From a bacterium ADurb.Bin236 (GTDB taxonomy: Bacteria; UBP15; UBA6099): 64,000 nt of DNA. The notes below the pieces were generated by a model. The model saw only the letters and a list, made by a program, of their open reading frames with translations, made no database searches and was not told the DNA's origin. The position numbers and the translations under genes are program-made. Of the stretch, positions 12,926 to 44,613 are shown piece after piece. How positions within the stretch are numbered: position 1 is the stretch's first letter; every line of letters begins with the position of its first letter. The DNA lies in the NCBI GenBank assembly GCA_002069885.1, contig MWCD01000001.1, positions 2,770-66,769 of the forward strand, in the 5' to 3' direction.

Positions 12926-12957
12926 AAAAGCCTCCGATGAGGAGGCTTTTTTGTTTT
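12926..12957 (+). terminator. rho-independent terminator
   Basis: aaaagcctcc-gatga-ggaggctttt hairpin followed by ttgtttt. Confidence 0.75.
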
Positions 12958-13010
12958 GCCGAAGAAGGGAATCGAACCCCCACGAGGAGTGATCCTCGGC
13001 AGATTTTGAG
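12957..13010 (-). repeat. 54-nt copy of the 3' half of tRNA-Leu(CAA) (anticodon loop to discriminator). Candidate att site.
   Basis: Identical to 32980-33033 and to the 3' part of the intact tRNA at 44528-44581. The repeat starts exactly in the anticodon loop. Confidence 0.8.
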
Positions 13011-13455
13011 AAAATTGAAAAATCCAAGAATTATTATTATATAAGGTTTTTATTGTATTCATATAACCTGTGTTATGCGTGTGTTATCAAGATTAAGGGA
13101 GTTTTCGTTGAATACTCGGATTGAAAATGATGGTGTAAATTATTCATGCCGATAATGTGACAATGTTAATCATATTTGCGCCGTATCGATTCATAAGCAA
13201 ATTGTGCCGCCAGTTTGTGAATAGTGTTGTGCTAAGCTACAGGGCATTTCCGTTATCACAAGCTTTGTTGCGTTTATTGAGGCGAGAAACAAGGGGGCGG
13301 ACAAAGTAATATTTAGTTTGAAAATATAAGGGCTTATCCTTAACATGTGAAATCAAGAGGAGTTGTCGGTTTACTTGCGGAGCTGGCAAGGTTGTGTCGG
13401 TGTAAAGGCGATGTTCTCCGTTTTTATAGAAGGGATTGAGGCATAGCTTATTGGG

Positions 13456-16400
13456 ATGACAGACAAAGCAAAAAATCAGACGCAGAGAAAAATGTCGGAA
13501 TTATCTCGGATAAACCAATACGCTGCTGTGATTGCGGCGTTCTGGACTTTTGCCGCGTGCGCGTCGATGTTATGGGGTTTTCAGCTTCAGCGCAACGGGA
13601 TAATAACGCTTGCGAAGAGCCAAGCCCGCGCGGCTTTTCAGAAAGATATTCTTTACCGGAAGTGGAGCGCGGACCGAGGCGGGGTCTACATCAGGGCAAA
13701 CGAGGCCACGCCTCCGAACCCGTATATTCCTGAAAACGCGAGGGAGATTGAGACGTCCGGCGGGGAGAAGCTGACGCTTGTGAATCCGGCATATATGACG
13801 CGGCAGGTTCACGAGATGGGAACGGATGAAAACGGAGTGTTCGGACACATTACGAGCCTGAATCCGATAAGGCCCGAGAACGCTCCGGACGAATGGGAAA
13901 CGGAAGCTTTGAAACTGTTCGAAATAGGCGAAAAGGAAGCGGTGACTGCGGTAAAAACCGGCGACGGCGGCGCTCTGAGATTTATGAGGCCGCTGACAGT
14001 AGAGGCCGGATGTTTGAAATGCCACGCGTCTCAAGGTTACAAGCTGGGAGAGATAAGAGGCGGCATAAGCGTGATGGTTCCGCTCAAGCCGCTAAAGGAA
14101 TCGGTAAGGAGCCACTTGACTGCGATAGCGGCCGGGCACTCCGCGCTCTGGCTGTTCGGAATTGTCGCCATAGCGTCCGGCGCAAGGACTATCCGAAGAG
14201 AAACAAAGCAACGGTTGAAAGACGAGGCGGCTTTGAAAGCCAGCGAGGAGTTTTTGAAGAAATCTCAGGAGATAGCCCATGTGGGTAGCTGGTCGCTCGA
14301 CCTGTCTGACAATTCGATAACTTGGTCGGACGAGGTTTTCAGGATATTCGGACTTGAGCCGGGCAACATAGCCCCAACGTTTGACGCTTTCCTCGAACTG
14401 GTTCATCCAGAAGACAGGGGACAGATTTCAGAAGCGTATGAAAAAGCGATAAAAAGCCATGAACTGACGGAGATCGTCCACAGGATAATCACTCCGGCTA
14501 AACGAACGAGGACGGTAAGGCAGAAAGCATTCATGGCGGACGCGGTCGGGGGAGGCGCGAGGATAGTAGGCACTGTCCACGACATCACCGAGCAACAGGT
14601 ATACGAAGAAAGCCTTAAGATGTCTCGCAAGCTTTGGGAAGACACGTTCAACGCGATAACCGACGTTGTGTTGGTGATAGACAGAGAATTCAAGATATTG
14701 AAAGCCAACAGGATAGCCGAGGACATGTTCGGCTCCGATAGAATTGTCGGCGCGAAATGTCACGAGTTGTTCCACGGGCAGGATTCTCCGCGGCCGTGGT
14801 GTCCGGCGCTTTCGGTTTCGGACACTAAAGAATCAAGGCGCGTCCAGATGAAGGAAGAGTATCTGGGAGGCAGGTGGTTCGACTATTCGGCGCATCCGAT
14901 CTCCGACGAGGTTGGAAATGTGACCCAGATCGTGCTGGTGGCAAGGGACATAACCGAGAAGAAAAGGGCGGAAGAAGAAGCGGCCCGGACCGCGTCGCTT
15001 AACGAGTTGCTCCTTGATTCGTTCCCTCATCCGGCGATGCTCATAGACAAAAACAAAAAAATACTCGCTGCAAACAGGATAGCGAAGAAGATGGGCGCGG
15101 CGCAGGGAGAAAGCTGTTGGAGCAGTTTCGCGGGAATGGCCCGCGCGCCGGGAAACGGGGACGCGGGAAAAGGAGTAGCCGCTCTATCCGCCTGTTCTCA
15201 TCACTGCGACTTCTGTCTCGCTGAAAAGGCTTTCGCGGATATGGAGTCAAAACAGGACTCCAACGTCGGGTTAAAGGGCGGGATATGGGACACACATTGG
15301 GTTCCCGTCGATGAAAACACATATCTGCATTACGCGGTTGATATCTCGGAAATCAGGAAGGCAGAGGAGGCTCTGAGGAAATCGGAGCGGGACCTTGCCA
15401 TAAGAAACAGGATAGCGGATGTGTTCCTTGCGCGCTCTTCAGGCGACGACATGTTCGCGGAAACGCTGGAAGTGGTGCGTAAAGAGCTTGGCAGCGAATA
15501 CGGATACTTCGGCTACATAGACGAAAAAGGGGATTTTGTTTCCGCATCTATGACGCGTGAAGTGTGGGATGTCTGCCAAATTCCGGAAAAGACAAATGTG
15601 TTTCCGAAAGACTGCTGGAACGGGCTTTGGGGACGTTCGCTGATAGGAAAAAGGACGATTTTTTCAAACGAGCCGTTGAAGGTTCCGCAAGGCCATGTTC
15701 CGCTGGACAGGGCAGTAGCGGCGCCGATTGTCTATTCGGGAAAGCTTATAGGGCAGTTGGCGCTGGCAAACAAAAAAGACGATTATACGGATAACGACAT
15801 AAGGTTGATCGACTCGATAACCGAATACATAGCGCCGATCCTTCATTTCAAGTTGACCGCCGAACGCGAAGAGCGCGACAGGAGGAAAGCGGAAACAGCG
15901 ATACGTTCGATCATAGAGGGCACGGCGGCGACGACGGGCAAAGACTTTTTCAGGTCGCTGGCAAAGAACCTCGCGCAGGCGCTTTCCGTGAAATACGCGC
16001 TCATCGCCGAATATCCTGCGGACGCTCCCGGCAAAGCGCGTTCGCTGTCCTTCTGGGCGGGGAACGGATTCGCAGACGATTTCGAATACGATCTGACCGG
16101 AACGCCGTGCGCGGAAGTGTTAGAAAGCGGCAAAGACATCTGCTATTTCCCCAAAAGCGTCAGAGAACTTTTTCCAGATGACGTGGATCTGGCGAAAATG
16201 GGGGCGGAAAGCTATTTGGGAACGTTGATGATGGACTCTGCCGGAAAACGCATTGGGCACGTGGCGGTTCTTGACGACAAGCAAATGGCATTCGATCCAG
16301 ACACGAGAAGAATCTTGAAAGTGTTCGCGGCGCGGGCGCAAGCCGAGATAGAAAGGCTTGGAGCCGAAGAGCAGCTTAAGAGACACAGGGACAGGCTGGA

Positions 16401-17175
16401 AGAAATTGTCGCAGAAAAAACCGTCGAACTAGAAAAGGCGAACCAAGCGGTGTTTCAAACGATGAAATACCAGATGGTGGCGCGTCTATCAATGGGTTTG
16501 TCTCACGAGATAAAGAACCCGTTGGCGATTATGAAAACGCACGCCGAGCTTCTTGAAACCAATGAGGCGGTGGCTAATATCGGCGACGAAGAGATTAGCT
16601 ATTCTCTGTCGGTTTTATTGAAACAGATCGACCGGATATCGACTACTCTGGATAATCTGAGGATTCTATCAAGAGAAAAAGCTTCCGAATTTAAAAACAT
16701 CGAAATCAAGAGTATGATAGGCGAAGTCATCAAGATGTTCTATCCGGCTTTAAGGAAAGCGGGCATAACGGCGAGGCAGTCTTACGCCGAGGACGCTCCT
16801 TCGATAATAGAAGCGGACGAGACGAAGCTGATGCAAATGCTGACGAATCTGGTGTTTAACGCCATGGAAAGCATGTCCGAGAGAGGCGGCAAGTTGACGT
16901 TGTCCCTTGACTCTCTGGAATCCGGCAGACTCGTTCAGATATCGGTGTCGGACACAGGTCGCGGCATTTCTAAAGACAACATTAAGAAGGTGTTCGACCC
17001 GTTCTTCACTACGAAATCGGGAGGAACGGGAATGGGGCTGGCGATTTGCGCGGGCATGGCGGAGGACCACGGCGGCTCGATAAGCGTGGAAAGCGCGGAG
17101 GGCGAAGGCGCGACCTTCAGGTTGACTCTCCCAGCGAGCCAGAGCGCGACTAAGCGGAACGGAGAGAAGGCATGA
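13456..17175 (+). CDS. multidomain sensor histidine kinase: periplasmic DUF3365-like heme-c (CXXCH) domain, PAS and GAF domains, HisKA, HATPase (1239 aa)
   Basis: TM helices at residues ~20-40 and ~215-235. CLKCH is encoded at 14011-14025. PAS-like blocks, GAF-like regions, H-box LSHEIKNPL, and a C-terminal ATPase with DTGRGI...GGTGMGLAI. Confidence 0.85.
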   Translation: MTDKAKNQTQRKMSELSRINQYAAVIAAFWTFAACASMLWGFQLQRNGIITLAKSQARAAFQKDILYRKWSADRGGVYIRANEATPPNPYIPENAREIETSGGEKLTLVNPAYMTRQVHEMGTDENGVFGHITSLNPIRPENAPDEWETEALKLFEIGEKEAVTAVKTGDGGALRFMRPLTVEAGCLKCHASQGYKLGEIRGGISVMVPLKPLKESVRSHLTAIAAGHSALWLFGIVAIASGARTIRRETKQRLKDEAALKASEEFLKKSQEIAHVGSWSLDLSDNSITWSDEVFRIFGLEPGNIAPTFDAFLELVHPEDRGQISEAYEKAIKSHELTEIVHRIITPAKRTRTVRQKAFMADAVGGGARIVGTVHDITEQQVYEESLKMSRKLWEDTFNAITDVVLVIDREFKILKANRIAEDMFGSDRIVGAKCHELFHGQDSPRPWCPALSVSDTKESRRVQMKEEYLGGRWFDYSAHPISDEVGNVTQIVLVARDITEKKRAEEEAARTASLNELLLDSFPHPAMLIDKNKKILAANRIAKKMGAAQGESCWSSFAGMARAPGNGDAGKGVAALSACSHHCDFCLAEKAFADMESKQDSNVGLKGGIWDTHWVPVDENTYLHYAVDISEIRKAEEALRKSERDLAIRNRIADVFLARSSGDDMFAETLEVVRKELGSEYGYFGYIDEKGDFVSASMTREVWDVCQIPEKTNVFPKDCWNGLWGRSLIGKRTIFSNEPLKVPQGHVPLDRAVAAPIVYSGKLIGQLALANKKDDYTDNDIRLIDSITEYIAPILHFKLTAEREERDRRKAETAIRSIIEGTAATTGKDFFRSLAKNLAQALSVKYALIAEYPADAPGKARSLSFWAGNGFADDFEYDLTGTPCAEVLESGKDICYFPKSVRELFPDDVDLAKMGAESYLGTLMMDSAGKRIGHVAVLDDKQMAFDPDTRRILKVFAARAQAEIERLGAEEQLKRHRDRLEEIVAEKTVELEKANQAVFQTMKYQMVARLSMGLSHEIKNPLAIMKTHAELLETNEAVANIGDEEISYSLSVLLKQIDRISTTLDNLRILSREKASEFKNIEIKSMIGEVIKMFYPALRKAGITARQSYAEDAPSIIEADETKLMQMLTNLVFNAMESMSERGGKLTLSLDSLESGRLVQISVSDTGRGISKDNIKKVFDPFFTTKSGGTGMGLAICAGMAEDHGGSISVESAEGEGATFRLTLPASQSATKRNGEKA

Positions 17176-18566
17176 AGGCGAGAATTCTGGTTGTGGACGA
17201 CGAGGCGGACCTTTGCAAAGGCGTGGAGATAGCTCTGAAAAGAGACGGTTATCACGTAGAATCAGTTTTTTCCGGTGAAGAGGCTGTCGAGGTTCTTCAG
17301 GAGAAAAGCTTCGACCTGATTATTCTCGATTATAAGATGACCGGCATGGACGGGCTGGAAACCTTGCGCCAAATCAGGGAGAGATTCGGTGACGTCAGCG
17401 TCATTTTTATCACCGCGCACGGGGATCAGGAGCTTGCCATCAGAAGTTTGGAGCTTGGCGCGACCGAATACATGCACAAACCGTTCAACCTTAAAAATCT
17501 TTCGTTCAGGATTTTCAAGACGCTGAAACTGCATTTGCTGGAAACAGAGATAAAAGAGCTGAAGAAGAATAGCAGAAACAGTTTTTCAGGCATTGTGACG
17601 AGAAATGAAAAGATGAAAGAGATAATGGAGATAGTAGACAGAGTGTCTAAGCATTCAACGCCGGTGCTGATAACGGGCGAGACGGGGACGGGGAAAGAAG
17701 TGATAGCGTCCGCGATACACCACAACACGATGAATCCGAGGAAAGAGAAGGCGTTTCTGACGATAAACTGCGGAGCGGTGCCGGAGCCGCTTATAGAAAG
17801 CGAACTGTTCGGGCATGTAAAAGGCGCGTTTTCAGGAGCGGTTATGGACAAGCAGGGCTTATTTGAGGTCGCAGACGGGGGAACAATCTTTCTGGATGAA
17901 CTTACAAGCGCATCTCCAGCTCTCCAAACAAAACTGCTTCGCATACTCGACTGCGGCGAATATTTAAGGGTGGGCGACACCGCGACAAGGAAGGTTGACG
18001 CGCGGGTTGTCGCCGCAACAAACAAGGACATCCCCGGCGAAATCGAGAAGGGCAATTTCAGGATAGACCTTTATCACAGGCTCAAAGTGGTTCAAATCGA
18101 ACTTCCGCCTCTGAGGGACAGGATAGAGGACATCGAACCGCTGGCGAGGCGTTTTCTCGAAATCTATAACGCGGAGATGGGCAGAAGCGTGAGCATGTCG
18201 GCGGACGCTTTAAGCGTTCTTAAAAGCTATCCTTGGCCGGGCAACATAAGGGAGCTTAAGCACTGCATGGAGAGCGTCGTTCTTATGTGCCGCGGAGAAA
18301 TCATACGGCCTGAAGACCTTCCTGAAAGGATGCGGCTTCTCGACGACAACGAGCTTTCCGGCGATTTCTCAGAGATGAAATCCCGTCTGCTGGAAAACTT
18401 CGAAAGGAAATACTTTGCTTCCATTATTAAAGAAGCGGGCGGAAATATTTCAAAGGCGGCTGATCTGGCAAACCTGAGCCGGGTGTATCTTGCAAAAAAG
18501 CTTAAAGAATACGGGATAGACGCCAAAGAAGAAAAGCAAAGCTCCGGAGATTCTCCCGGCAAATAA
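17172..18566 (+). CDS. sigma-54-dependent response regulator (NtrC family: REC + AAA+ + Fis-type HTH)
   Basis: Receiver ILVVDDE...ILDYKMTGMDG, Walker A GETGTGKE, GAFTGA-type ESELFGHVKGAFSGA, C-terminal HTH. The start overlaps the kinase stop (atga). Confidence 0.9.
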   Translation: MKARILVVDDEADLCKGVEIALKRDGYHVESVFSGEEAVEVLQEKSFDLIILDYKMTGMDGLETLRQIRERFGDVSVIFITAHGDQELAIRSLELGATEYMHKPFNLKNLSFRIFKTLKLHLLETEIKELKKNSRNSFSGIVTRNEKMKEIMEIVDRVSKHSTPVLITGETGTGKEVIASAIHHNTMNPRKEKAFLTINCGAVPEPLIESELFGHVKGAFSGAVMDKQGLFEVADGGTIFLDELTSASPALQTKLLRILDCGEYLRVGDTATRKVDARVVAATNKDIPGEIEKGNFRIDLYHRLKVVQIELPPLRDRIEDIEPLARRFLEIYNAEMGRSVSMSADALSVLKSYPWPGNIRELKHCMESVVLMCRGEIIRPEDLPERMRLLDDNELSGDFSEMKSRLLENFERKYFASIIKEAGGNISKAADLANLSRVYLAKKLKEYGIDAKEEKQSSGDSPGK

Positions 18567-18954
18567 AACTCTTTTTTATTTTCGTATTAATAACATAATC
18601 GGTTTGGCGGCTATGCTGCCGAATGTCGTATCGCGCCTCTTTTTCGAGCGGCTGATCTTGCCGAAGCATCAAAAAAACAGTAGTTATCATATTAAGTCGA
18701 GAAAATAATCCCGCATCGAAAAAGGAATATTTATTACTAGCGCACGTGAGCGGCAGTTGAAGACGTCAACTGTTGTTGGCATTCGCTACCTATCACGCGC
18801 CGCGCGCGGCGGTTCTTATCCAAAATAAATAAACCTTTAACACAAACGATATTTTTATCGTTTCGATTGCGCGCCGCGCCTATGGCTCGTGTTGGCAGGC
18901 TAATTGATATATTAGAACCGCAAGCAGGACGTGACAGGGGGAAACGAAACGCTG

Positions 18955-19371
18955 ATGGAAAACATAGCCGTAGAAACAAGTTTCTCGCAACCTAGGCTGC
19001 TGCTTGTGGACGACGACGCCGGTTTCAGGGAGAACATTGAGGAAATTCTAGACAGGTCATCGATTCAACACGTGTCCAAAGAGGGCGGCGCCGACGCAAT
19101 AAAAGAATTGATACATAACAAAAAAGGTTTCGACTGCGTGCTGCTTGATATGCACATGGGCGGGATAAGCGGAGTGGACACAGCGCGCATGATTAAGAAG
19201 TTGAAGGGCGCGTTGCCGATAGTGATGATGGGAACGGGCGAGTCGCTCCTGATGGAGATAACCGCGCGGACTATAGGATCAAATTGCCATTATATAAAGA
19301 AGCCGTTCAGCGAGGAAGAACTGGTGGACGCGCTGAGACGGTCTATAAGCGCGCCGACGGGAGAGCGCTAA
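18955..19371 (+). CDS. cheY: CheY-like receiver protein
   Basis: LLLVDDD...VLLDMHMGG...K receiver. Start taken at ATG 18955 (AGGGGG upstream). A GTG at 18931 is the alternative. Confidence 0.75.
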   Translation: MENIAVETSFSQPRLLLVDDDAGFRENIEEILDRSSIQHVSKEGGADAIKELIHNKKGFDCVLLDMHMGGISGVDTARMIKKLKGALPIVMMGTGESLLMEITARTIGSNCHYIKKPFSEEELVDALRRSISAPTGER

Positions 19372-19373
19372 AA

Positions 19374-22106
19374 ATGGAAGATAGAGTTAAGACGGCGATA
19401 GAAAATCTCTCGGCGTTGGTGGCGGAGTTCGATGCGGATGACGCGGCGATAAGCCGTTTGATACTTGAAGCAATTGAGGAGATTCGGGATTCGGCGACGG
19501 ATAAGATGGCGGCGCTGCTGGACAAGGTTGAAGGAGCGGTGGTCGACATCTGCGCGGGCGAAACGGATTTTGCCGCCGCTTATGAGGCGTTGGTCTCGGC
19601 GGTCGGCGCGGTTCAGAAGGAGCAGGAATGCGGAGGAAATGCCGAAGACAAGCCCGCAATGCCTGCGGAAGACTTATTTGAGGTTGAGATTCAACACGAT
19701 GTGCTTTCAGGGCTGATTGAACAGGCCGGCCCTTCGAACGACCACGTCACCGGCGTGTGCGGAGACCTTTTCGAGAAGATAGCGGCGGTGAAGACGCTGC
19801 CCGGCAGCTTGAGAAAAAAGATAGGCTACATAGTTGAAACGATAAGTTCTCGCTCCTATGAAAGCGGCCCGTTTGAGGCTCTTGCGGCCCGAATGGAAGA
19901 AGCGGTCGCGGAGGTGGGGAGGACGCTGAAAGAAGCGAAAAGGACGATTGACGCCGAATCCAAATTTGTTGACGACGAGGATTTGACCTCGGTTTTTCTG
20001 GAGCGCCAACAGGCGGCTCTCAATGAGTTTGAATCGGATATATTGAAAGTTGAAAAAGGCGACGCGGTCGCGGCGCTGGATGTGGCGACGACTGTGGGAC
20101 GGCTCGCGGAGGAAACATCCGCCCTTGGGATGAAAGAGGCGGCGGTTTTCCTTGAGAGGCTTTCGGGGCTTATGGGCACAGAGCCGCCGTCGGCTGAAAA
20201 GAAGAAGATAGACGCGTTGCTTGTTTTGAAGGACATACTGCAGGAACATTTCGACGCGTTGTCCGAGGGGCGCGAAGGAAAAATCGACGCGGCGCGCGCC
20301 GAATCGGTCGCTGTTGCGTTCCGAACCGGGCAGGCGCGCCCGGTTGTAAGAACCGAACACGGCTCTGCGAAAAGAATCGCGCCGAAGGTGGTTGTGGACG
20401 CTTCCAACCCGGATTTTCCGGAGTTTATCGCCGAAACCCGCGACTACATCCAAGCGGCGGAAGCCGCGATGATTTCTCTTGAGAAAAACCCGGACGACAA
20501 AGAATGCCTGAATGAGATATTCAGGTGTTTCCATAATGTGAAAGGCATATCGGGTTTTTTCAGTTTGACGGATGTCAACGAGTTGTCTCACAACGCGGAA
20601 ACATTGTTAGACAAGGCCAGAAAAGGGGCAATGGAATTCACTTCCGAGTGCGCCGCAGCGTCGTTCGAAGCGCTGGACATGCTAAAAGAGATGCTGGAGC
20701 GGGTCGAGAGAGCGCTGGGCGGAGGGGCATACAATTCGCCGGAAAGATGGGCGGAACTCATAAACAGGTTGGAGATGATAGCTGCCGGGCAGACGCCGCC
20801 GGAGGCTCAGCGCGCGATTCCGGCGGAAACCAAGCCGCGACCAGCCGCTGAAACGGCAGCGCAAGAGGACTCCGCAGGGGAAAATGTAGTTGCGTCAGTA
20901 GGCCCCGCTGACTTGTCAGCAAATGGAGCTTCAAATCAGAACGCGGGCATGGTCAAAGTCAGCACGAAACGGCTGGACAGCCTGATCGACGCGGTGGGGG
21001 AGCTTGTGATAGCCAACGCGATGGTCACTCAAAGGCTAGAGTTGAAAAATACGATAGACGCCGACCTCGCCCGCAACGTCAACCAGTTGAACAAGATAAC
21101 CCGCGAGCTTCAGGAGCTTGCGATGAGCATGAGAATGGTTTCGTTGAAGAGCGTGTTTCAAAAGATGGCGCGCGTGGCGAGAGACACCTCTATAAAGGCG
21201 GGGGTTCCGATGGAATTCTCGTTTTCAGGAGAAGACACCGAACTGGATCGAAATGTTGTCGAAGAGATAAGCAGCCCGCTGGTGCACATGGTGAGGAACG
21301 CGGTTGACCACGGGATAGAGCCGAGCGAGGAGCGGATGCGCTTGGGCAAGCCGCCGATAGGGAAGATAAAGCTGTCGGCATTCCATGAGGGCGGCGGCGT
21401 GATAATCAGAATCGAAGATGACGGACGAGGACTGGACAGGGAAAGAATAATAGAGAAGGCGCGCAGGCTTGGGATGGTCAGGCCGGACGCCGAACTGAGC
21501 GACCGCGAGGCGTATTCTCTGATATTCAACGCCGGATTTTCCACTGCCGAAAAAGTAACAGACATATCGGGCAGAGGCGTGGGGATGGACGTTGTGAGGC
21601 GCAACATTGAGAGTTTAAGAGGCAGAGTCGAGATAGATTCCTCGAAGGGGAAAGGCTCTGTTTTCACCATAAGGTTGCCGCTGACGCTTGCGATAATAGA
21701 CGGCATGGTGGTGAGGATAGCGGATGAGAACTACATAGTTCCGACGATAGCCATAAGAGAATCGCTGAGGCCGGCGCGGGAGCAATTGACCACAGTGGCC
21801 GGCAAGGGCGAGATGCTTTCGGTTCGCGGAGACCTCATGCCATTGTTCAGGCTGAACAGGTTGTTCGAGGTGGAAAACGCGAAAGAAGACCCGTGCGACG
21901 CGCTGGCTCTGGTGCTGGGAAACAACGGTTCGAGTTGCGCGCTCATGGTGGACGACCTTGTGGGGCAGCAACAGGTGGTCATCAAATCTCTCGGCAAGTC
22001 TTTCGGCAGTCTCGAAGGATTGTCCGGAGGCGCGGTTATGGGAGACGGGCGGGTCGCATTGATTGTGGACGCGGCCGGGCTGGCAAGGCTGGCAAAGAAT
22101 TCTTGA
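19374..22106 (+). CDS. cheA: chemotaxis histidine kinase CheA (Hpt, dimerisation, HATPase, CheW-like domains)
   Basis: Hpt FHNVKGISGFF, ATPase N/G boxes HMVRNAVDHGIE and RIEDDGRGLD, C-terminal CheW-like domain. ATG 19374 has an RBS. The ORF-track start 19284 is rejected because it overlaps the upstream gene. Confidence 0.9.
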   Translation: MEDRVKTAIENLSALVAEFDADDAAISRLILEAIEEIRDSATDKMAALLDKVEGAVVDICAGETDFAAAYEALVSAVGAVQKEQECGGNAEDKPAMPAEDLFEVEIQHDVLSGLIEQAGPSNDHVTGVCGDLFEKIAAVKTLPGSLRKKIGYIVETISSRSYESGPFEALAARMEEAVAEVGRTLKEAKRTIDAESKFVDDEDLTSVFLERQQAALNEFESDILKVEKGDAVAALDVATTVGRLAEETSALGMKEAAVFLERLSGLMGTEPPSAEKKKIDALLVLKDILQEHFDALSEGREGKIDAARAESVAVAFRTGQARPVVRTEHGSAKRIAPKVVVDASNPDFPEFIAETRDYIQAAEAAMISLEKNPDDKECLNEIFRCFHNVKGISGFFSLTDVNELSHNAETLLDKARKGAMEFTSECAAASFEALDMLKEMLERVERALGGGAYNSPERWAELINRLEMIAAGQTPPEAQRAIPAETKPRPAAETAAQEDSAGENVVASVGPADLSANGASNQNAGMVKVSTKRLDSLIDAVGELVIANAMVTQRLELKNTIDADLARNVNQLNKITRELQELAMSMRMVSLKSVFQKMARVARDTSIKAGVPMEFSFSGEDTELDRNVVEEISSPLVHMVRNAVDHGIEPSEERMRLGKPPIGKIKLSAFHEGGGVIIRIEDDGRGLDRERIIEKARRLGMVRPDAELSDREAYSLIFNAGFSTAEKVTDISGRGVGMDVVRRNIESLRGRVEIDSSKGKGSVFTIRLPLTLAIIDGMVVRIADENYIVPTIAIRESLRPAREQLTTVAGKGEMLSVRGDLMPLFRLNRLFEVENAKEDPCDALALVLGNNGSSCALMVDDLVGQQQVVIKSLGKSFGSLEGLSGGAVMGDGRVALIVDAAGLARLAKNS

Positions 22107-22174
22107 CAAAGGCGGAAAGCGAGGCGTGTTTCGGCCTCGCGAAAATATTGACAACTATGGAAAGGAGGCATGAG

Positions 22175-22690
22175 ATGGCGACGGCGATAGAAAGACAGAC
22201 GAATGAAAAAGGCGCGGGCGCGACTCGAAAGTATTTGACTTTCGCGCTCGGCGAAGAGGAATACGGTCTGGAGATAATGAAGGTGCGCGAGATTATTGGA
22301 CTTATGGACATAACTCGGGTGCCGAGGATGCCGGAGTTCGTGCGGGGCGTTATCAACCTGCGCGGCAAAGTGATTCCCGTTCTTGACCTGCGGATGAAGT
22401 TCAACATGGACAAGGCCGAGGACACCGACCAGACGTGCATCATCGTGGTCGATATCGAATCGACCCTGATGGGCGTCGTGGTCGACGAGGTGTCGGAGGT
22501 GATGAACATATCCGAAGAGGATATCGAAGAGACTCCCGAGTTCGGCGCGCGAGTCAACACGGAGTTCATACTCGGCATAGGCAAAGCGCCGGGAAGAGTC
22601 GTTATTTTGCTCAATATAGTAAAGGCGCTCAGCGCCGAGGAAATAATCGCGATTTCAGAAATAAGAAACACAAAACAGGCTTCGGCTTGA
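22175..22690 (+). CDS. cheW: CheW coupling protein
   Basis: [22 protein letters not shown]...[15 protein letters not shown] CheW signature. A perfect AAAGGAGG RBS precedes the ATG at 22175. Confidence 0.9.
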
Positions 22691-36800: not shown

Positions 36801-39800
36801 CGCGGCAAGCGGAGCTTTGACCGTGATATTAGTGTTTGCCGCCGAGGAGACCGATCCGTCCTCGGGATAGAGGATGTCGAGGTCGGGAGTCATCGATGAA
36901 ATCTCTTCTTCGAGAGGAACGTAAACGAACTCTGTCCTGCCGGCGGCCGCGGCCTGTCCGGAGGTTGCGGCTTTTTCGCGGGTTTCCATATTTCTTCTAT
37001 CCGCTGATTCCTTATCGCCGGATACAGTGAAGTCCGCGTTCATGATGCCGCCGGAAACCATGTCTATGAACTGCGAATCCGGATCGCCGGCGAACCTGTT
37101 GGTGGATAGCGAGGAGATCGATATTCCGGCGGGAAGGGTCTTTGCTTCGATCTTAAGCACATGCAGTCCGGGCGTTACGCCGATCACCGAATACTTGCCG
37201 TCCGTTCCGGTTACGATCCTCGCGCCGTCTTCCATGTAAATTGCGACTCCGGACACACCCGGCTCTCCGCGGCTCTGCATTCCGTCGCCGTCAGAATCCA
37301 CAAAAACTTTGCCGACGATGGTGCCGTTCGAGGTGAACACGCCTTCTTTAATGGTTACAGTGTAATATGCGGTGTTGGAAGAAACTGTTTTTGCGCCGAG
37401 AGTTCCCTGAGCGTAAGCGGTGTTTTTGCCATCGCCACGCTTGCTGTCCACTCCGACGACCGTGCTGTAGGAAATTTCGAAGTAACCGCCGGCTGCAAGG
37501 GAAGTGACGCTCCACGCGAGAGTCATGGAAGCGGGCCTTGCGGGGTCAGCCGCCGCGCCGCTGAGTGTTGTCGAGCCGTCGATATACTGCATCCCATGCG
37601 GCAGTATGTCGGTCACCGTGATGTCGTTCACCGGCCAGCTTCCCGAGTTGGAAACACGCACCGTGTACCTTACGATATCTCCGATAGTGGCATTTTTTTT
37701 ATCTGCGGTCTTGGTCACTGCGAGAAGTTCGATCACCGGCGGGTCCACCGGGATGTCGAAGTTCAACGGATAATAAACCAAGTCTCCGCTTTCGACAACG
37801 CCCGCGTCCTCAAATTCGCCCGGGAGCGGGGTTACGAAAGGATTGCCCTTAGACCTTTCATCCACCCTGTACTGCTTCGGCATCTCCGAATTGGGAATCA
37901 GTGATGGGAAAGTAAAATTTCCTCCGACTGCAACGCTTACCCGGTAGTGAGCGCCGTCGGGTGTCTTGGGAACATAGTAAAAAGTAAAAACACCGTCCGC
38001 GCTGGTTCCCGCAACCGAGGGGCTGGGATTGGGTTGGTTATAAGGAAGCGCGACAGAAGTTTCCACGGACTGATCTATTTGGGTAAGGGTCACCACGGCG
38101 CCCGCGACCGGTTCGCCGGTCATCGAGTTGAATACACGGCGCTGCGGCTCCACTAACGCGAACTGACGTGAAAGCGGGGTGCCGTTCGGATCAAACGGAT
38201 CGATATATATCCCTTCGAGTTCTCCTCCCGCAGTTAATGTTATATGACCGTTTCCGGACGTTGCGGCGGTCGCCGATGACCTTGCCGCGCGCGTGGCGGC
38301 CATTTCGCACTGACCGCTGTTCAAGATGTTCGGCACGCAGCCGCGGAACATTTCGGAGTTCGTCCCGACCTCGGTAAGCACGACGGTTTCCGTATCGCCG
38401 CTCAACTTATCAACAATTGTGACTTCCAATGTGTCTTTTGTGTTGGGATTGATATTTCTATCCGCGTCGTTGACTTGCAGATATATGTCCTCATAAGTCA
38501 TTAGCGTGCGTTTAATAGTCGTATATGTTTTATTGTAGATTTCTAGGTAATTATCGACGTCGCGAGCCGAAACCACGGTGGTCGCAGTCGCTGACACCGG
38601 GTCTGAGTCGTCCGCTGTTACGGTCGCCACATTTTTAATCGTATCGCCATCGAGTTCGCTGTCCGGCACGTTGAGAAGCAACTTGAGAGTTTTGCTTTCT
38701 CCGGCGGACAGATCGCCGATGTTCCATGAAACCGAGCCGTTGGAGAAAGTCCCCCCGTTGTCCGCGCTGACGAAACTCGTTTTCTCCGGGATGGGGTCTG
38801 TAGCGAACACGTTTGAAAGCTGTATGTATCCGTCGTTGGAAATCAGTATGGTGTAATAGATGTCGTTTCCCGCGAACGCGGGAAGGCCGGTCTTTGTAAC
38901 TGAAAGCGATGCCTTGCGGATATAAGTTTCGACCGAATTAGAAACCGCCGGAGCAAGTTCGGCGCAGGTTATCGAGGCGATATTGGTGATGGTGGTTTCG
39001 AGCGCGGAGATGGATGAAACGGAAACGGAGAATTCCAGATCGCCTTCAGCGCCGGGAACGATAGCTCCGAGATCCCATGAAACAATGCGGCCCGAGAGAA
39101 CACCGCCGCCCGTGATCGAATTTTCCACGAGCGAGGTTTCGGACGGCAATTCATTGATGACTCTCGCCAGAGACGCATCCGCATTGCCGATGTTCTTGTA
39201 ATGAAGAGCGTAGGTGATTGTGCCGCCGGGGCCGACCACGGCGGACGAGGCCGATAGCGACAGTTTAAGATTCGGTCCCGCGCCGACCATTATGCTATTG
39301 GTATAATTGGTTTGTGTTTCATCCGAAACCATCGTGATGGAATTCTCGATGACATCGCCGACTGAAATTGCGCTTGGGTCGGCGGGAGGATAATCGGCCG
39401 CAGTTTTGACGACGCCGGTGAGTGTGAGCGTGCCGCTCTGACCTACTGCCAGCGATCCGAGATTCCATGAAACGGTCCCGCCGGCCGGACCGGCGGCGTA
39501 AACTCCGCCGCCGGTCGCCGACGAGAATATCACATAATCAGAAATCGAGTTCGTGAGAACTACATTCGATGCATCAGAATTGCCCGAGTTCTCGTAGTAG
39601 ATCGTATAAACGAGCAGTGACCCCATAGCCGTCGGGTCGGAGCTTTCAGTGACCCGGAGGAACAGAACGGGGGCTCCGGAAACTGTGACCTCCGCCTGAG
39701 CTTCGACTCCGGGCATGGGATTTCCGCCCGCGTCACGATACGAAACGAGAGCGCGGTTGACAATCAGGGTTCCGATCGGAGGGCTAGATGCGCGCGCCGG

Positions 39801-39884
39801 CGGGCATGCTGCGGCAAGCGCCATCAGGCATATAAGCGCCGCTCGCGCTGCAATACCGGTGATTTTGCGCTTTACCGATCCCAT
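33864..39884 (-). CDS. giant secreted DUF11-repeat / Ig-like surface protein with a roughly 900-aa C-terminal predicted outer-membrane beta-barrel (2006 aa)
   Basis: Signal peptide MGSVKRKITGIAARAALICLMALAAACPPARA. Multiple DUF11-type repeats (LxYTIxYxNxGNxxASNVVL). C-terminal region has alternating hydrophobic/aromatic strands and ends in ...ISIKFKFD. Confidence 0.75.
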   Translation of the reverse strand: MGSVKRKITGIAARAALICLMALAAACPPARASSPPIGTLIVNRALVSYRDAGGNPMPGVEAQAEVTVSGAPVLFLRVTESSDPTAMGSLLVYTIYYENSGNSDASNVVLTNSISDYVIFSSATGGGVYAAGPAGGTVSWNLGSLAVGQSGTLTLTGVVKTAADYPPADPSAISVGDVIENSITMVSDETQTNYTNSIMVGAGPNLKLSLSASSAVVGPGGTITYALHYKNIGNADASLARVINELPSETSLVENSITGGGVLSGRIVSWDLGAIVPGAEGDLEFSVSVSSISALETTITNIASITCAELAPAVSNSVETYIRKASLSVTKTGLPAFAGNDIYYTILISNDGYIQLSNVFATDPIPEKTSFVSADNGGTFSNGSVSWNIGDLSAGESKTLKLLLNVPDSELDGDTIKNVATVTADDSDPVSATATTVVSARDVDNYLEIYNKTYTTIKRTLMTYEDIYLQVNDADRNINPNTKDTLEVTIVDKLSGDTETVVLTEVGTNSEMFRGCVPNILNSGQCEMAATRAARSSATAATSGNGHITLTAGGELEGIYIDPFDPNGTPLSRQFALVEPQRRVFNSMTGEPVAGAVVTLTQIDQSVETSVALPYNQPNPSPSVAGTSADGVFTFYYVPKTPDGAHYRVSVAVGGNFTFPSLIPNSEMPKQYRVDERSKGNPFVTPLPGEFEDAGVVESGDLVYYPLNFDIPVDPPVIELLAVTKTADKKNATIGDIVRYTVRVSNSGSWPVNDITVTDILPHGMQYIDGSTTLSGAAADPARPASMTLAWSVTSLAAGGYFEISYSTVVGVDSKRGDGKNTAYAQGTLGAKTVSSNTAYYTVTIKEGVFTSNGTIVGKVFVDSDGDGMQSRGEPGVSGVAIYMEDGARIVTGTDGKYSVIGVTPGLHVLKIEAKTLPAGISISSLSTNRFAGDPDSQFIDMVSGGIMNADFTVSGDKESADRRNMETREKAATSGQAAAAGRTEFVYVPLEEEISSMTPDLDILYPEDGSVSSAANTNITVKAPLAAKVYLFLNDEPVSSKRVGKKITESELEIAIYQYIGIQLAPGAENAIRAETRDEDGNITSEKEIRITAAGLPAKIEVKPEKTEIIADGASKARVSASVYDDKGLPVAYEGIATVETTSGEIDTKDADASMDGVQVLYSGGAARFDVKAPRQAGEAVITVAFGELQGSAKVHFTPDLGDNLSVGLVEFRFGSGKAGGDTELIRSSDGWFDRGGYAGARGALFTKRKIGDDSLLTLSYDSHKSKRPDLFFNSLRNPDAEDQYPIYGDDSVTSFEAQSREKLYLRLDRRKSHLLFGDFETGFNETKLSAYSRSFNGLKIGMNTDKYRLSAFETHTDQSQVVDAIPGRGVSGYYYLSAAPIMDGSETVAVEIRDRLRPEAALNRDTLSRWSEYSIDYETGAILLKDPLPSYDEDLNPVYLIVSYETEGGGNTYYIYGARLRFKLNDRLGVGFTGVTQEAETSDYHLWGMDFDYKLHKLTTLKYEFAETKSLFNIDNILALKNGGGWSFELKSDALERTKITAYWRNTRSYFGNMSAVDAQRGMEKKGLEFSFLKNRNTTLAGKFFTERDSVNYMDHRLSSILLKRTIRNMKFESELLRESSNDNFIITNTDRTRYPFDISERTPSKTTAARFSLTGNIRPRLALTLEHQQDIQDNNFNVSSAKLDYKLKGAGHLYARREFWRLDGSRSWRNVLGVETPIARDTSAFNEYRLEGGADGRRVQRAIGVRNKFALNDRVSGSVSLEKLNTVKGAEMQRDPDAFAVTAGTEFVFMRDVKMTARAEYRDSTLDTSRLAELGLAAKMGTDYSLLLRQRWSNTGYSTGAQRTTTGSMVGVAYRPAHNNRFNAFARIEFKRDRSSPVVSDSTPSARIYSIEGVYHPSKSFSLTGKYAAKISKTDLFRSYTDMVAGRFTYDLTSRFDIGLEARTLRSRSINSQSIGGSAELGYKCLKNIWLTTGYSFDDFDSDLAGDSYWGKGPYISIKFKFD

Positions 39885-39915
39885 AAACAGCTCAGAACCC
39901 TTTCATTCCAATTCG

Positions 39916-41709
39916 TCAATTTATAGTCACAGAAAACCGCAGGACATACGTGCCGCCTGCGCCGAGACTCGGCGTTTCACCGAGAGCGTTGTTGGAACCC
40001 GAGTCGTAAGTCGCGCCGTCGCCGTCGCTTGCATCCGTCCGGGAAACAAGCGTTCCCGTAGTGGCGCCCGTGTACAGACTGCCCGGCACGTATGTCGTGT
40101 GCAGCGGGATGTGATCGGTTATAACTACTACCGTGGCCACTCCTGTGCCGGAATTGGTTGCAGTTATCGTGTAGGTGAGAGTCGTTCCGGGAGGCTGAGT
40201 TCCGGTAGGGCTGACCGATTTGGTAAGCGTGACAACCGGCGCTGTGACCGTGGTGGTGAAGGTAAGGATGTCGCTCTTCGAGGTGTCAACCGAAGACTTC
40301 CCGGTCACGGCAAGGGTATCGATGCTCTGGTCCGAGGCGCCGGCGGGTATCGTAACTACTGCCAGCACAGAGATGGTCCCATTCTGCGCCAGCGTGCCGG
40401 TATCGACTTTGCCGTCGGCATCCGTGTCCGTCAGCAGATAATCTCCGTCGTTGCCGGATATGCCGTCGTTGTTCATATCCGCCCAGAACACCCATGTCCA
40501 GCCTTGGCTGGACGTGTAAGTCAAGTCGATCACGTCGTTGGAGTTTGTGTAGTTGTGGACTGTGAAAGGGTAGGTGATTTTGTCGCTCGGATCGCCTGAA
40601 AGCGCTGTTATGGTGACGGTCAGGTCAACCGAAGCGAGCGCGCCCACGAATAACGTTCTGCCGTTCGAGTATGTGGTTACATTGTTCGGCCCGGAAACGT
40701 ATGCGACGGACGCCTGATTCGTGATGGTCGAGTTATATGCCACGCCGCTGTTCACCGTGGCCTGAAATGTCACCGCCTTGGTTGAACCGGCATTGATTGT
40801 TCCCACAGTTACCGTCACCGCGCCTCCGGTTGTCCCGTTGTAATCCGAGCCGTCGTCGCCGGTGGCGTCCGTTTTCGTGGTTCCGTCTAATGTTATGCTG
40901 CCCGGCACGTACGTGACGCCCGTCGGGACGACGTCGGTCATTACAACCGAAGTTCCCGCCGACGACCCGGTGTTCGACATGGTGATCGTGTATGTCACGG
41001 TGTCGCCGGGCGCGGGGGATTCAGGCGAGTGGGTCTTAGCGGCATTAATCACCGCCGCGGCGACTGTCGTGGTGTACAGACCCGTGGTTGTCTGCCCGGG
41101 GTCGAACTGCGAAGTCGCCGTTATGGTAATGGTGTTGCTCGTGCCGTCCGTGGCGGCGCCGGACGCCGGAATCGTCACAAACATAAAAACGTCGTAATCG
41201 TCGTCCGCAACGACTGTTCCGGTTGTGTATTTTCCGGCGACGGCGGTCATCAGCGTGTCCGTCCCGGCATCGTAAGTATGGTTATTGTTAATATCGTAAT
41301 AGAATGTGATCGAAGACGGTGTCCACGCGCCCCCGACTGCATACGTGAAGTCGAACTTGTCGCTTCCGTTTCCGTCATTGAATATCTGAAAAAAATGCAT
41401 GATCGTAGTGTTGTTGGCGCCTGCCATGGTCCCGGACGGAGGGACTAACGAGACTGCTGCCACCTGACTTACCGTAGTTGTGACGGTGTTCGAGTAAACG
41501 CGCGTCATCGAGTTGTTGTTGGCGTCCTTGTAGTCAACGTACGCTTGATTCGAGATGATGGTGCCGGATGCCGTCCCGACCGCGTACAGTTTCGCCGCGG
41601 CCGCGACTATCCCCGCCGCCGCGAGCAGGAACAGCAGCGCCTCTAAAAACCGTTTCTTTTTTCCGTTTCTTATTTTCGTTGCATTTCTCATTACAGAGCC
41701 CCCTTTCAA
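39916..41709 (-). CDS. secreted DUF11-repeat protein (597 aa)
   Basis: Signal peptide-like N-terminus. Repeated TYTITxxNTG / DxxDxDG blocks. Confidence 0.7.
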   Translation of the reverse strand: MKGGSVMRNATKIRNGKKKRFLEALLFLLAAAGIVAAAAKLYAVGTASGTIISNQAYVDYKDANNNSMTRVYSNTVTTTVSQVAAVSLVPPSGTMAGANNTTIMHFFQIFNDGNGSDKFDFTYAVGGAWTPSSITFYYDINNNHTYDAGTDTLMTAVAGKYTTGTVVADDDYDVFMFVTIPASGAATDGTSNTITITATSQFDPGQTTTGLYTTTVAAAVINAAKTHSPESPAPGDTVTYTITMSNTGSSAGTSVVMTDVVPTGVTYVPGSITLDGTTKTDATGDDGSDYNGTTGGAVTVTVGTINAGSTKAVTFQATVNSGVAYNSTITNQASVAYVSGPNNVTTYSNGRTLFVGALASVDLTVTITALSGDPSDKITYPFTVHNYTNSNDVIDLTYTSSQGWTWVFWADMNNDGISGNDGDYLLTDTDADGKVDTGTLAQNGTISVLAVVTIPAGASDQSIDTLAVTGKSSVDTSKSDILTFTTTVTAPVVTLTKSVSPTGTQPPGTTLTYTITATNSGTGVATVVVITDHIPLHTTYVPGSLYTGATTGTLVSRTDASDGDGATYDSGSNNALGETPSLGAGGTYVLRFSVTIN

Positions 41710-41713
41710 GGAC

Positions 41714-42241
41714 TTACTTTACTTTTACTTTAAAACTGACCTTGCCCGACTTTCCCGGCTCCACCGTTTTGGCAATCAGCCACTTGATGTGGGTGTACAT
41801 ATCCGCCGGGGCTTCTTTCTCTTCGCTTTTTCCATCGGGTTTTTCCTCTATATATTTAATCGGAGGTTTCTGGAACACCCGCCCTCCGTCTATACTGAAT
41901 CCAATCTCCGTGTCTTTTCCATCAGCGCTGCCGATTATGTAAACCGTACCCTTCGGGACTGGGTCCACCACGGAGATGTCCTTCAACGGCGCTTTTCCTT
42001 CATTGGTGTAGGTTATGGCATAAACCAGAACGTCGCCGCGTTCAGCGTTGTCCGCAGGCTTCAGTTCCGTAACTTTCTTTCCGTTCTTCTCGACAATGGA
42101 TACAAGGTTTGCTTTGATTTCGAGCTTCAGAGGCTGTTTTAGCGATTTGCCTTTTTCCTGCGCCACCGCGGACCGCGCCGCGAACGCCGCCATCAGAAGA
42201 ACCACGACAATGCAAGCTGTTCTGATCTTGTAATTTTTCAT
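41714..42241 (-). CDS. small secreted single-DUF11-domain protein (175 aa)
   Basis: Signal peptide MKNYKIRTACIVVVLLMAAFAARSAVAQE, then DVLVYAITYTNEGKAPLKDISVVDPVP. Confidence 0.7.
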   Translation of the reverse strand: MKNYKIRTACIVVVLLMAAFAARSAVAQEKGKSLKQPLKLEIKANLVSIVEKNGKKVTELKPADNAERGDVLVYAITYTNEGKAPLKDISVVDPVPKGTVYIIGSADGKDTEIGFSIDGGRVFQKPPIKYIEEKPDGKSEEKEAPADMYTHIKWLIAKTVEPGKSGKVSFKVKVK

Positions 42242-42254
42242 GATATGTTTCCTT

Positions 42255-44015
42255 TCAATTCACGGACACCGTGAAGCAGACAATCCCCTCGTCCGTCCCT
42301 GAATTAGGAACGGAGTCGTTAGCGGAAACGTTGCCGATTTTGAAAATGATGTTGGAGCCGCTGAGTTCAGCTTCGTCGCCGTCCACGGCGTCTGTTTTAG
42401 CAGTAGCCGTAGCGCAAGTGGCGGCGGCGCCGCCGATCTTGAGGCTGTTTACGCTATATATTGCTCCCGTCGGTATTGAGTCGGTGATCTGAACCACGCT
42501 CGCCGCCGCGCCTCCAATATTTTGATACCTGACCGTGTATGTTATCGTCGCCCCGGGCAGCACGGTGGCTGTTGACGTCGTTTTGGTCAGTGTGATCTGG
42601 GGCGCGGTGACAACAACAGGCGCGGTGTGGCCCGTGGTTGCCGTGGTGAAGTTTGCGCCGGACACCGTCGCGGTATTGTAGGCCGTCGTGTTCGGCCCGC
42701 CGACTTTCGCCTTGAATATAAGCGTCACTGTTCCATTCACGATCCCTACTTTTTTCGGAACTGTCCAGCTACCGCTCCAAGTCTGGTTCTGCCCGTTTAT
42801 CGTCGGATTTGAAGTAGTCAGTCCGGATGTGTTTCCCGTTATGTAAGTGAATCCGTTCGGAAGAGTATCAGTGATATTGGAAATCCAGCCGTCGCCCGGC
42901 CCGCTGTTGGTGACTGTGATTGTGTATGTGGCGGTTGCGCCCGAAACCGCTGATCCGACATCGACTACTTTTGCGATCGTTATCGTAGGGCCGTATATCT
43001 GAAGCGTATCGGTTCGCGTCTGATTCATAAGCCCGCCGGCGCTTATTTGATCGTGGTATGTCACTGTAACCGTCTCGGAAGGCATGACCTCGAGGATATT
43101 GTTCCCAAGTATCGGTATGGAGGAGGAAGTAGTGGCCGACCCGGTGAATATTCCGGTGTTCGCTCCTGTTTCCGTGAGAGTAATAGCCAGCGTATCTCCC
43201 GTCTGGGTCGTCAGGGTGACGGTTACCGTCTGCGTTGTTGCGGTGTCAACATTAATGTCCGAGTCGTTCACGCGAACGTATAGCGAAGCGCCGGAGTCTG
43301 CCATAGTAACATCGCCGTTCCCCGCAGCGTCCGCCACAAACATCACGGCGCCTGTGGTCGGCGTTGTGCCGACCAGCTTAACAGGGTCGGAAACCGCCGT
43401 GTATAGATCCGATCCGGCCACGAGGTCCGCAGAAAGAACTACTCCGTTGCTCGAGGACCCGAACCACAGCCTTATGGGAGAATTGTCATTAATCCCGGTC
43501 GCCGTTTTGAATGTGCTGTATGGGAATCTCCAATCGACGAAGTAATCCTGATTTCCGTTTATTGTCGTATCAGCGGCGGTGATTACGATATTACCTGAAA
43601 CCGTAATGGTCGAAACGCTGGTCTCCGGGCCATCGTTTGGGCTTCCCATCGTTCCCTGCGTCGAATTCTGCCACAGGACTATGGTTTCGGGATTTCCGAT
43701 TCCGTCAACCATTATAGACCATTCATAATCTCCCGCGTTGTTGTTTGAATCGATCAGCACTCCCCAGCCGAATGAAGCAAGCAGCCCTTGTCCGCCGGAG
43801 CCTGCAGGGTTGGAGTCTAACCTGAGCCGGAAATACATATAATTGCCGTCGTTGTAAATGAAAGCCGCATCGTGCGCGGGCGAGGATACTATATTTCTCG
43901 AACCGTTAGCATCAGTGAGGGAATCCTGAAGCAGGTCGCCATTTTTGAATACCGGAATCCACTGCGCAGTCGTCGGCCATGCCTCAACCTTCGTTGCCTG
44001 CAGCAAAGCCGACAA
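42255..44015 (-). CDS. DUF11-repeat surface protein (586 aa as called). The true start is probably upstream, up to about 44063.
   Basis: DUF11 blocks (ATYTITVTNSGPGDG, ITYTVRYQNIGGAAAS). An in-frame upstream extension encodes a textbook signal peptide (SKKHTIQIFFISIIALSALLQA|TKVEA) but no ATG/GTG/TTG precedes it. Confidence 0.65.
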   Translation of the reverse strand: MSALLQATKVEAWPTTAQWIPVFKNGDLLQDSLTDANGSRNIVSSPAHDAAFIYNDGNYMYFRLRLDSNPAGSGGQGLLASFGWGVLIDSNNNAGDYEWSIMVDGIGNPETIVLWQNSTQGTMGSPNDGPETSVSTITVSGNIVITAADTTINGNQDYFVDWRFPYSTFKTATGINDNSPIRLWFGSSSNGVVLSADLVAGSDLYTAVSDPVKLVGTTPTTGAVMFVADAAGNGDVTMADSGASLYVRVNDSDINVDTATTQTVTVTLTTQTGDTLAITLTETGANTGIFTGSATTSSSIPILGNNILEVMPSETVTVTYHDQISAGGLMNQTRTDTLQIYGPTITIAKVVDVGSAVSGATATYTITVTNSGPGDGWISNITDTLPNGFTYITGNTSGLTTSNPTINGQNQTWSGSWTVPKKVGIVNGTVTLIFKAKVGGPNTTAYNTATVSGANFTTATTGHTAPVVVTAPQITLTKTTSTATVLPGATITYTVRYQNIGGAAASVVQITDSIPTGAIYSVNSLKIGGAAATCATATAKTDAVDGDEAELSGSNIIFKIGNVSANDSVPNSGTDEGIVCFTVSVN

Positions 44016-44249
44016 GGCTATAATTGAAATAAAAAAAATTTGTATTGTATGTTTTTTTGAAATATTAAATTCCTCTCATTTTAATATATATATCACAAAA
44101 CAATCTCATTATGACAAGCTTGTTAAAAAAATATCTTAATAATTAATAATTGAAGTTTTCACCCGCGCAGGATAATAATTCGAAGATGACTATCTCAAAT
44201 GGTTTGAGGGGCGCGGCGAACAGTGAGCAGTTGGAGATGACCATGCGCC

Positions 44250-44581
44250 TTGTTCAAAGTCAGCGCAAATGAGAATCCTAGGCGATAGAAAACAAATAAT
44301 AGATTCGGGTAGTGAGTCAAGGGGCTGGCTTTGCGATGCTGAAGGTGGTATTAAAGGAGCTTGGCATTGCAGAGATAAATGTTTTAAAAAAGATTAAGAA
44401 GCCAATTCCATGTGAGCCGAAAATCCTTAAATGTGCGCAAGATTTGTGCTAGGGTTTTTATGAATTTGCAGAAGCAATTAAAATTGGCTAAAATCCAAAA
44501 TCGCTCTTATTTACTGGGCGTTTTCTATGCCGAAGAAGGGAATCGAACCCCCACGAGGAGTGATCCTCGGCAGATTTTGAG
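44250..44581. repeat. 332-bp direct repeat (partner of 32703-33033) lying 3' of, and overlapping, the intact tRNA-Leu
   Basis: Same comparison as for 32703-33033. Contains a TTGCAG-N17-TAAAAT promoter-like motif at 44466-44494 on the plus strand. Confidence 0.85.
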
Positions 44582-44613
44582 TCTGCTGCGTCTACCTGTT
44601 CCGCCACTTCGGC
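44528..44613 (-). tRNA. tRNA-Leu (anticodon CAA), class II with long variable arm. CCA not encoded.
   Basis: Reverse complement folds by hand as GCCGAAG / D-arm GCG-GAACAGGTAGA-CGC / anticodon stem GCAGA, loop CTCAAAA (CAA) / variable arm CGAGGATCACTCCTCGT / T-arm GGGGG-TTCGATT-CCCTT with two G-U pairs / CTTCGGC plus discriminator A. Confidence 0.8.

Follow-up and report, generated by a model that had tools for sequence, protein, structure and literature searches.

A Probable Tandem Array of Two Decayed, Recombinase-Less Islands at the tRNA-Leu(CAA) Gene of the Uncultured Bacterium ADurb.Bin236

Introduction

How can two operon-scale gene sets come to lie between direct copies of one tRNA 3' half when no recombinase gene is found beside them? 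This question is raised by a 64-kb stretch of contig MWCD01000001.1 (GenBank assembly GCA_002069885.1), referred to here as the window, all positions being counted from its first letter, which belongs to bacterium ADurb.Bin236, an uncultured and unclassified digester bacterium. Its tRNA-Leu(CAA) gene is accompanied by two displaced copies of the tRNA 3' half, which bound an 11.5-kb segment (island A) and a 20-kb segment (island B). A first-pass annotation, made from the sequence alone, had read the region as the product of serial site-specific integration, giving two tandem islands with attL- and attR-like attachment (att) sites. That reading held and was strengthened by two homologous arms, X and Y, at the island ends. 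Based on the evidence below, the locus is probably a fixed tandem array of two decayed, recombinase-less islands resembling cis-mobilizable elements (CIMEs), which arose by successive attP x attB integration at the anticodon loop of tRNA-Leu(CAA).

Core Repeats and Arms of the Two Islands

The sole tRNA detected in the window by ARAGORN and Rfam is tRNA-Leu(CAA), located at 44528-44613 on the minus strand (RF00005, 55.6 bits), and the Rfam scan of the 64 kb returned this tRNA alone, arms X and Y being without any other RNA family. The 3' 54 nt of the gene (44528-44581; core copy 3, the putative attL core) occur in the same orientation and with 0 mismatches at 32980-33033 (core copy 2) and 12957-13010 (core copy 1), the spacing between core copies being 11,548 and 20,023 nt, an agreement that is not due to chance. 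In tRNA orientation the 54-mer extends from CTCAAAA, which starts at base 1 of the anticodon loop, to the discriminator base, with the anticodon at tRNA position 35. One full tRNA-Leu, and three mismatch-free direct copies beginning in the anticodon loop, had been reported or supposed in the first-pass annotation, which proved correct to the base. The displaced 3' half at core copy 2 (minus strand) would act both as attR of island A and as attL of island B, and the outermost one, core copy 1 (minus strand), is read as the original 3' end of the gene. A search of the window for more degenerate copies of the tRNA, of X or of Y found none. The locus thus has an intact tRNA gene and a cognate displaced fragment that bounds an island in direct orientation, and its identity block begins at a canonical crossover sublocation, the anticodon loop (classes per PMC4383910).

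The fragment at core copy 1 abuts a bidirectional intrinsic terminator (12925-12951), which also serves the convergent gene for a 293-aa protein (11990-12871) and is taken as the native attB flank; a terminator in this position is expected if that fragment is the original tRNA 3' end. A further possibility considered in the first-pass annotation, namely that the 54-mer is a dispersed repeat unrelated to the tRNA, was rejected by exact scans, since elsewhere the matches sit only inside complete tRNA-Leu(CAA) genes. Such genes account for the matches in genome contigs of three species representatives and in four of six metagenome contigs; the remaining two metagenome contigs are from this species, one of them having the fragment 2 junction. 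The exact 54-mer was not found in viral contigs.

Both islands end in the same two arms. Arm X (278 nt) is tRNA-proximal and lies on the minus strand at 44250-44527 in island A, where it is non-coding, upstream of the cargo operon, and without a credible open reading frame (ORF) or Pfam match, and at 32703-32979 in island B. One substitution and one 1-nt indel separate the X copies (99.3% identical), whose homology ends abruptly at the same point. Arm Y (156 nt) forms the distal end, at 33034-33189 in island A and, as Y', at 13011-13166 in island B, both on the minus strand; the two are 79-83% identical and have a common outer boundary, their strongly conserved blocks include CCTGTGTTAYGCGTGTGTTAT and GTAAATTATTCATGCCRATAATGTGACAATGT, and Y contains CCTGTGTTACGCGTGTGTTAT together with an inverted repeat that overlaps the core boundary. 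The homologous end blocks proposed in the first-pass annotation are therefore real, and are in fact two, X and Y; the 278-nt X arm had been missed there. In tRNA orientation the order is tRNA, X, DUF11 operon (island A), Y, core 2, X, chemosensory cluster (island B), Y', core 1 and terminator. Because both islands have common X and Y arms around the core, the internal junction Y-core-X (32703-33189, 0.49 kb) has the layout of an attP site, in keeping with a tandem array that site-specific integration has built, and the junction of an island A circle would be almost identical to it.

The inverted repeat is a perfect one of 9 nt (ATTTTGAGA at 33026-33034 and TCTCAAAAT at 33045-33053, with a 10-nt spacer) that straddles the core/Y boundary and re-uses anticodon-loop sequence; an imperfect counterpart lies at 13003-13026. 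It is a candidate core-type binding dyad for a recombinase. Over its initial ~30 nt, X has a weak similarity to what natively follows the tRNA in one comparison genome (L032, see below), a faint likeness that would be consistent with an attP arm once captured from a tRNA locus.

A sigma-54-like motif, TAGCACAAATCTTGCG, was also observed inside both copies of X (32888-32903 and 44436-44451) on the minus strand, the same strand as the DUF11 operon. A sigma-54 promoter link between the sigma-54 activator encoded in island B and this operon was considered and is unsupported, as the motif in X is without the -24 GG and the window holds 24 matches vs 24.4 expected.

Search for a Recombinase

Neither the scanned ORFs nor the precomputed Pfam annotation covering the 64 kb contained an integrase, excisionase or transposase domain, which bears out what the first-pass annotation had reported, and a recombinase was equally absent from ~10 kb to the left and ~6 kb to the right of the window. 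A search for integrase remnants gave no Pfam match in the small ORFs of X, Y and the junction gaps, nor in a six-frame scan of a 675-nt non-coding stretch of island A. Neither the island ORFs, nor the junction ORFs, nor the gap translated in six frames contained the tyrosine integrase that each island of the Islander type has. Pseudogene remnants of integrase, relaxase or type IV secretion system (T4SS) genes, which could have come from a parental integrative and conjugative element (ICE) or integrative and mobilizable element (IME), were likewise not found in the junction ORFs or the gap. Phage structural genes and conjugation genes (T4SS, relaxase), which would be expected of a prophage or an ICE, were absent from the Pfam scans.

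A helper element was sought among viral contigs with the 28-nt tRNA 3' end and two conserved Y motifs, and no match was obtained; blastn of the Y-core-X junction against phages and plasmids gave no match either.

Conservation of the Array in the Species and State of the tRNA Gene in Other Genomes

About 20 contigs of the same species, recovered from many samples in independent assemblies, match the window at 99.4-100% identity and are collinear across all junctions. Among these, a 60.9-kb contig from the Joint Genome Institute (JGI) starts in the left flank with the 293-aa gene, crosses island B and fragment 2, and reaches into island A. All contigs on record, compared around the 293-aa gene, around the CysE-like gene and around the final gene of island B, have one and the same arrangement, with neither an empty site nor a single-island variant among them, and strains that are 0.4-0.6% divergent are no exception. 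The array is fixed in the sampled population.

The ends of the contigs are clustered in several independent assemblies: L004 ends at 13165, the outer boundary of Y', L006-L009 end at 13692-13753, and L005 and L010 at 14779. This clustering may point to strain microdiversity where island B begins and in the part of its kinase gene that encodes the sensor, or else to a variant there that escaped assembly.

Four comparison genomes with an identical tRNA 3' half (L025/L030, L026/L033, L027/L031 and L032) show the gene in another state. In all four a complete tRNA-Leu(CAA) is followed by unrelated sequence with no fragment, and a terminator hairpin comes right after the tRNA (clearly visible in L025, L026 and L032), an arrangement that may be regarded as empty-site-like, set in flanks that are not syntenic. 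The 55 nt upstream of the tRNA are kept in L026 and L032, from which it follows that the 5' half of the gene and its promoter are native. The first-pass annotation had also considered that relatives might always carry the identical arrangement, and this does not hold: the contigs of the same species are all identical in arrangement, but the four other genomes are fragment-free, within non-syntenic flanks.

The genes beside tRNA-Leu(CAA) in L025, L026, L027 and L032 are wholly different (adenylate cyclases, an amidohydrolase, a RES-domain protein and unknowns), and the neighborhood of this tRNA appears to be a rearrangement hot spot in these genomes even without att scars. In the nearest relatives, homologs of the 293-aa gene with 84% and 51% identity occur in unrelated contexts without this tRNA.

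Cargo and Flanking Genes

The gene content described in the first-pass annotation, an 11.5-kb segment with DUF11 proteins and a 20-kb segment with a kinase and a Che-like system, is as the Pfam matches have it. The cargoes of the two islands are unrelated and run in opposite directions relative to X and Y. Island A (cargo at 33190-44249, minus strand) contains a four-gene DUF11/CLIPPER operon (33864-44015) and the AT-rich non-coding stretch of 675 nt mentioned above (33190-33863). The operon encodes four DUF11/CLIPPER proteins of ~590, 175, 590 and 2000 aa, homologs of which are named isopeptide-forming fimbrial proteins in the sources. The same four-gene module occurs in other uncultured bacteria with its order kept and 44-61% identity (L039 7616-18043; L038 8079-14831), in unrelated contexts without tRNA-Leu, X or Y, and looks like a portable pilus or adhesin module. 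In L038 (5676-9416) the operon is just downstream of a tRNA-Ala(CGC), beside an N6_N4 DNA methyltransferase and a GmrSD_N fragment, and this locus may be another tRNA-associated island with the same module. An ancestral linkage of the FapA and HD_5 genes with the DUF11 operon, hinted at by L039, was rejected, as the proteins in question are 24-29% identical and not orthologous.

Island B (cargo at 13167-32702, plus strand; genes at 13456-32512) encodes, according to Pfam, a DUF3365/PAS/GAF histidine kinase, a sigma-54 activator, CheA-CheW, CheW, a PAS-MCP, CheR and CheD, in addition to response regulators, two CheX proteins, a FapA-REC protein, a hemerythrin and an HD_5 protein. The DUF3365 kinase (Tll0287-like) and the sigma-54 activator precede the chemosensory cluster, and no CheB was seen in 13456-32512. 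With this content, the pathway may be chemosensory-like and serve an output that is not flagellar motility. Outside the species, no homolog of the kinase exceeds 39% identity, although the adjacent chromosomal 293-aa gene has a relative at 84%.

The genes on either side of the array are housekeeping genes, namely those for URO-D, SIS and NTP-transferase proteins in the left flank and for CysE-like, CysK-like, signal peptidase, acyl-CoA dehydrogenase and DnaE proteins in the right flank. Where plus-strand genes follow one another (window 1-33000), GC and AT skew are strongly positive; at 33-45 kb and beyond 52 kb, where genes lie on the minus strand, they flatten or reverse, so that the skew tracks gene orientation.

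Origin of the Array

Starting from what is observed, that is, the repeats, the arms, the terminator, the lack of any recombinase found and the fixation in the species, we infer an order of events, a class of enzyme and an array that no longer moves on its own. In the ancestral state, cysK, cysE and tRNA-Leu(CAA) would have been convergent with the 293-aa gene, with one common terminator between them. Island B (X, chemosensory cargo, Y') would have integrated first, its own core copy restoring the tRNA while the original 3' half was displaced to 12957-13010. Island A (X, DUF11 operon, Y), a related element, would then have integrated into the regenerated tRNA, and this second event would have left the attP-like Y-core-X junction inside the array. 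A tyrosine integrase, whether provided in trans or lost at a later time, is the likeliest recombinase; tyrosine integrases are the only enzymes known to target tRNA genes (tDNAs), and islands with an anticodon-centered attP are the commonest class among those found by Islander (2083 of 3919; PMC4383910).

The succession of two separate elements is argued for by the pattern of divergence, since Y and Y' differ by ~20% and the adjoining cores by 0%, which implies that the arms had diverged before integration. This pattern would be explained if two elements, related to each other yet distinct, had each been bound to bring in an exact tRNA 3' half, and the sharp arm boundaries common to both islands around unrelated, oppositely oriented cargo lend further support. 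The occurrence of the DUF11 module in other contexts, and the contrast between the island B kinase and the neighboring 293-aa gene in their relatives outside the species, speak in the same direction. A duplication of the tRNA region in situ followed by decay is disfavored because duplicated DNA would have diverged evenly, and it cannot yield cores with 0% divergence beside Y arms with ~20%. Together with an assembly chimera at the repeat, such a non-mobile or artefactual origin is hardly credible: several short contigs do end at or near repeat boundaries (L004 at 13165, L035 at 33033, and L036 and L037 near 32732-32766), but the 60.9-kb JGI contig runs uninterrupted from the 293-aa gene across island B and fragment 2 to island A, and each junction is spanned independently by other assemblies, so that mis-assembly is excluded.

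Several points weigh against successive integration of decayed islands. Arm and cargo meet at matching points in the two islands, a coincidence that would not result if an integrase gene had been deleted separately from each, and an identity of 99.3% for X vs ~80% for Y needs an extra assumption. It is possible that the arms are mosaic, that one X was common in the source population, or that homologous recombination took place through core and X; alternatively, the oddities of the arms may come from elements that never carried a recombinase of their own. The tetranucleotide composition of island B (r = 0.95-0.96 vs the flanks) bears no sign of foreign origin, and island A has a weak atypical signal only, which may reflect the composition of repeat proteins; the cargo was therefore not acquired recently on a compositional timescale, or else its source was a related genome. 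In addition, the four comparison genomes are non-syntenic on both sides of the tRNA, so that an orthologous empty site was not observed among them, and no cognate recombinase or free attP was found in the viral, phage and plasmid collections, the enzymology being what we infer throughout.

A choice between elements mobilized in trans and fixed remnants had been left by the first-pass annotation. If the elements were still live and cis-mobilizable, island A, island B or the composite would be excised and re-integrated by a tyrosine integrase whose gene lies at another place in the genome, or on an ICE, phage or plasmid that resides in the same cell and has the same attP. All three cores are intact, as this requires, and the X arms are so alike and so sharply bounded in common as if they had been selected as recombination sites; moreover, accretion of CIMEs with ICEs and their cis-mobilization are documented (PMC5704250), as is the excision of tandem tRNA-flanked elements in the case of the tycheposons of Prochlorococcus (10.1101/2020.12.28.424599). 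Such activity is nevertheless unlikely given that the ~20 contigs from many samples show no presence/absence polymorphism, that neither a matching attP nor the core occurs in viral, phage or plasmid collections, and that no integrase lies in the window and ~16 kb of extra flank. The balance leans to remnants, on the strength of identical same-species contigs, no variant, and no cognate integrase or attP found.

The contrast between the arms also bears on the way in which island A arrived. Core and X together (~331 nt) are 99.3-100% identical around island A, vs ~80% for Y and Y', and a single Campbell-type crossover through this homology, between a circle carrying the DUF11 operon with Y-core-X and the attL of a resident island B, would yield exactly the observed product without an integrase in the host. 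We consider this route improbable: it leads to the same end product as an integrase would, so that sequence cannot separate the two, it still needs a prior site-specific excision of the circle in a donor, and it leaves the Y'-core end of island B unaccounted for. A more speculative proposal, to which we likewise assign a low probability, is that X-core-Y is the complete 0.49-kb backbone of a family of recombinase-free 'mega-cassettes', in which operon-sized cargo is carried between the two short arms, and that a recombinase dedicated to them and acting in trans brings them into tRNA-Leu(CAA). Identical arm-cargo boundaries around unrelated and opposite cargo would be explained better in this manner than by two independent integrase deletions. 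The analogy would be to integron cassettes, from which the present structures differ in having a tRNA gene as attachment site and payloads of 10-20 kb.

Comparison With Known Systems

Successive integration of two islands that have since decayed, the origin preferred here, has close parallels. Integrase-less CIMEs that keep attL and attR and accrete in tandem have been described in relation to ICESt1/ICESt3 of Streptococcus thermophilus (Pavlovic, 2004; Bellanger, 2011; cited in PMC5704250). As in these, attL and attR are kept in the array (each island is bordered by exact cores and conserved arms X and Y), integration and transfer genes are lacking, the cargo comprising signaling and surface-protein genes only, and the members lie in tandem at the 3' end of the target gene with a copy of the att core between them, as left by successive site-specific integrations. 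The array is unlike the CIMEs in that both its members are without a recombinase and no ICE or IME partner is present, in that descent from an ICE or IME is not borne out by any leftover conjugation or integration module, and in that the host is unclassified and uncultured.

The tDNA islands of the Islander type (Williams, 2002; Hudson et al., 2015, PMC4383910) are similar in that the island regenerates the tDNA and is bounded by a direct 3' fragment starting at the anticodon loop, as well as in their sizes (11.5 and 20 kb here) and in the formation of tandem arrays, of which 125 cases with at least two members were reported (PMC4383910). They differ in that the algorithm needs an integrase gene for each array member; the array described here has none and would go uncalled. 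This is a blind spot of island finders that require an integrase, such as Islander.

A likeness is also found with the tycheposons of Prochlorococcus (Hackl et al., 10.1101/2020.12.28.424599), in which cargo elements are stacked at a tRNA gene with partial tRNAs between them, the tandem arrangement seen here, and adaptive operons rather than phage genes are the cargo; degenerate remnants and extra partial tRNAs have been described deeper in those islands (10.1101/2020.12.28.424599). Tycheposons are, however, defined by their own tyrosine recombinase and a replication (primase/helicase) module, neither of which is present in the array, and their lineage and habitat are unrelated.

Altogether, the structure is known in kind, as that of decayed tandem tDNA islands or CIMEs, and this new instance, from an uncultured lineage, has ends that are unusually tidy and brings no new mechanism. 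It provides a clear example of how traits on the scale of an operon, here a fimbrial adhesin operon and an entire chemosensory pathway, become fixed beside a tRNA gene after the machinery that delivered them is gone. If the arms were substrates of a trans-acting recombinase, they would extend integrase-free cargo modules beyond the Firmicutes, where CIMEs were defined.

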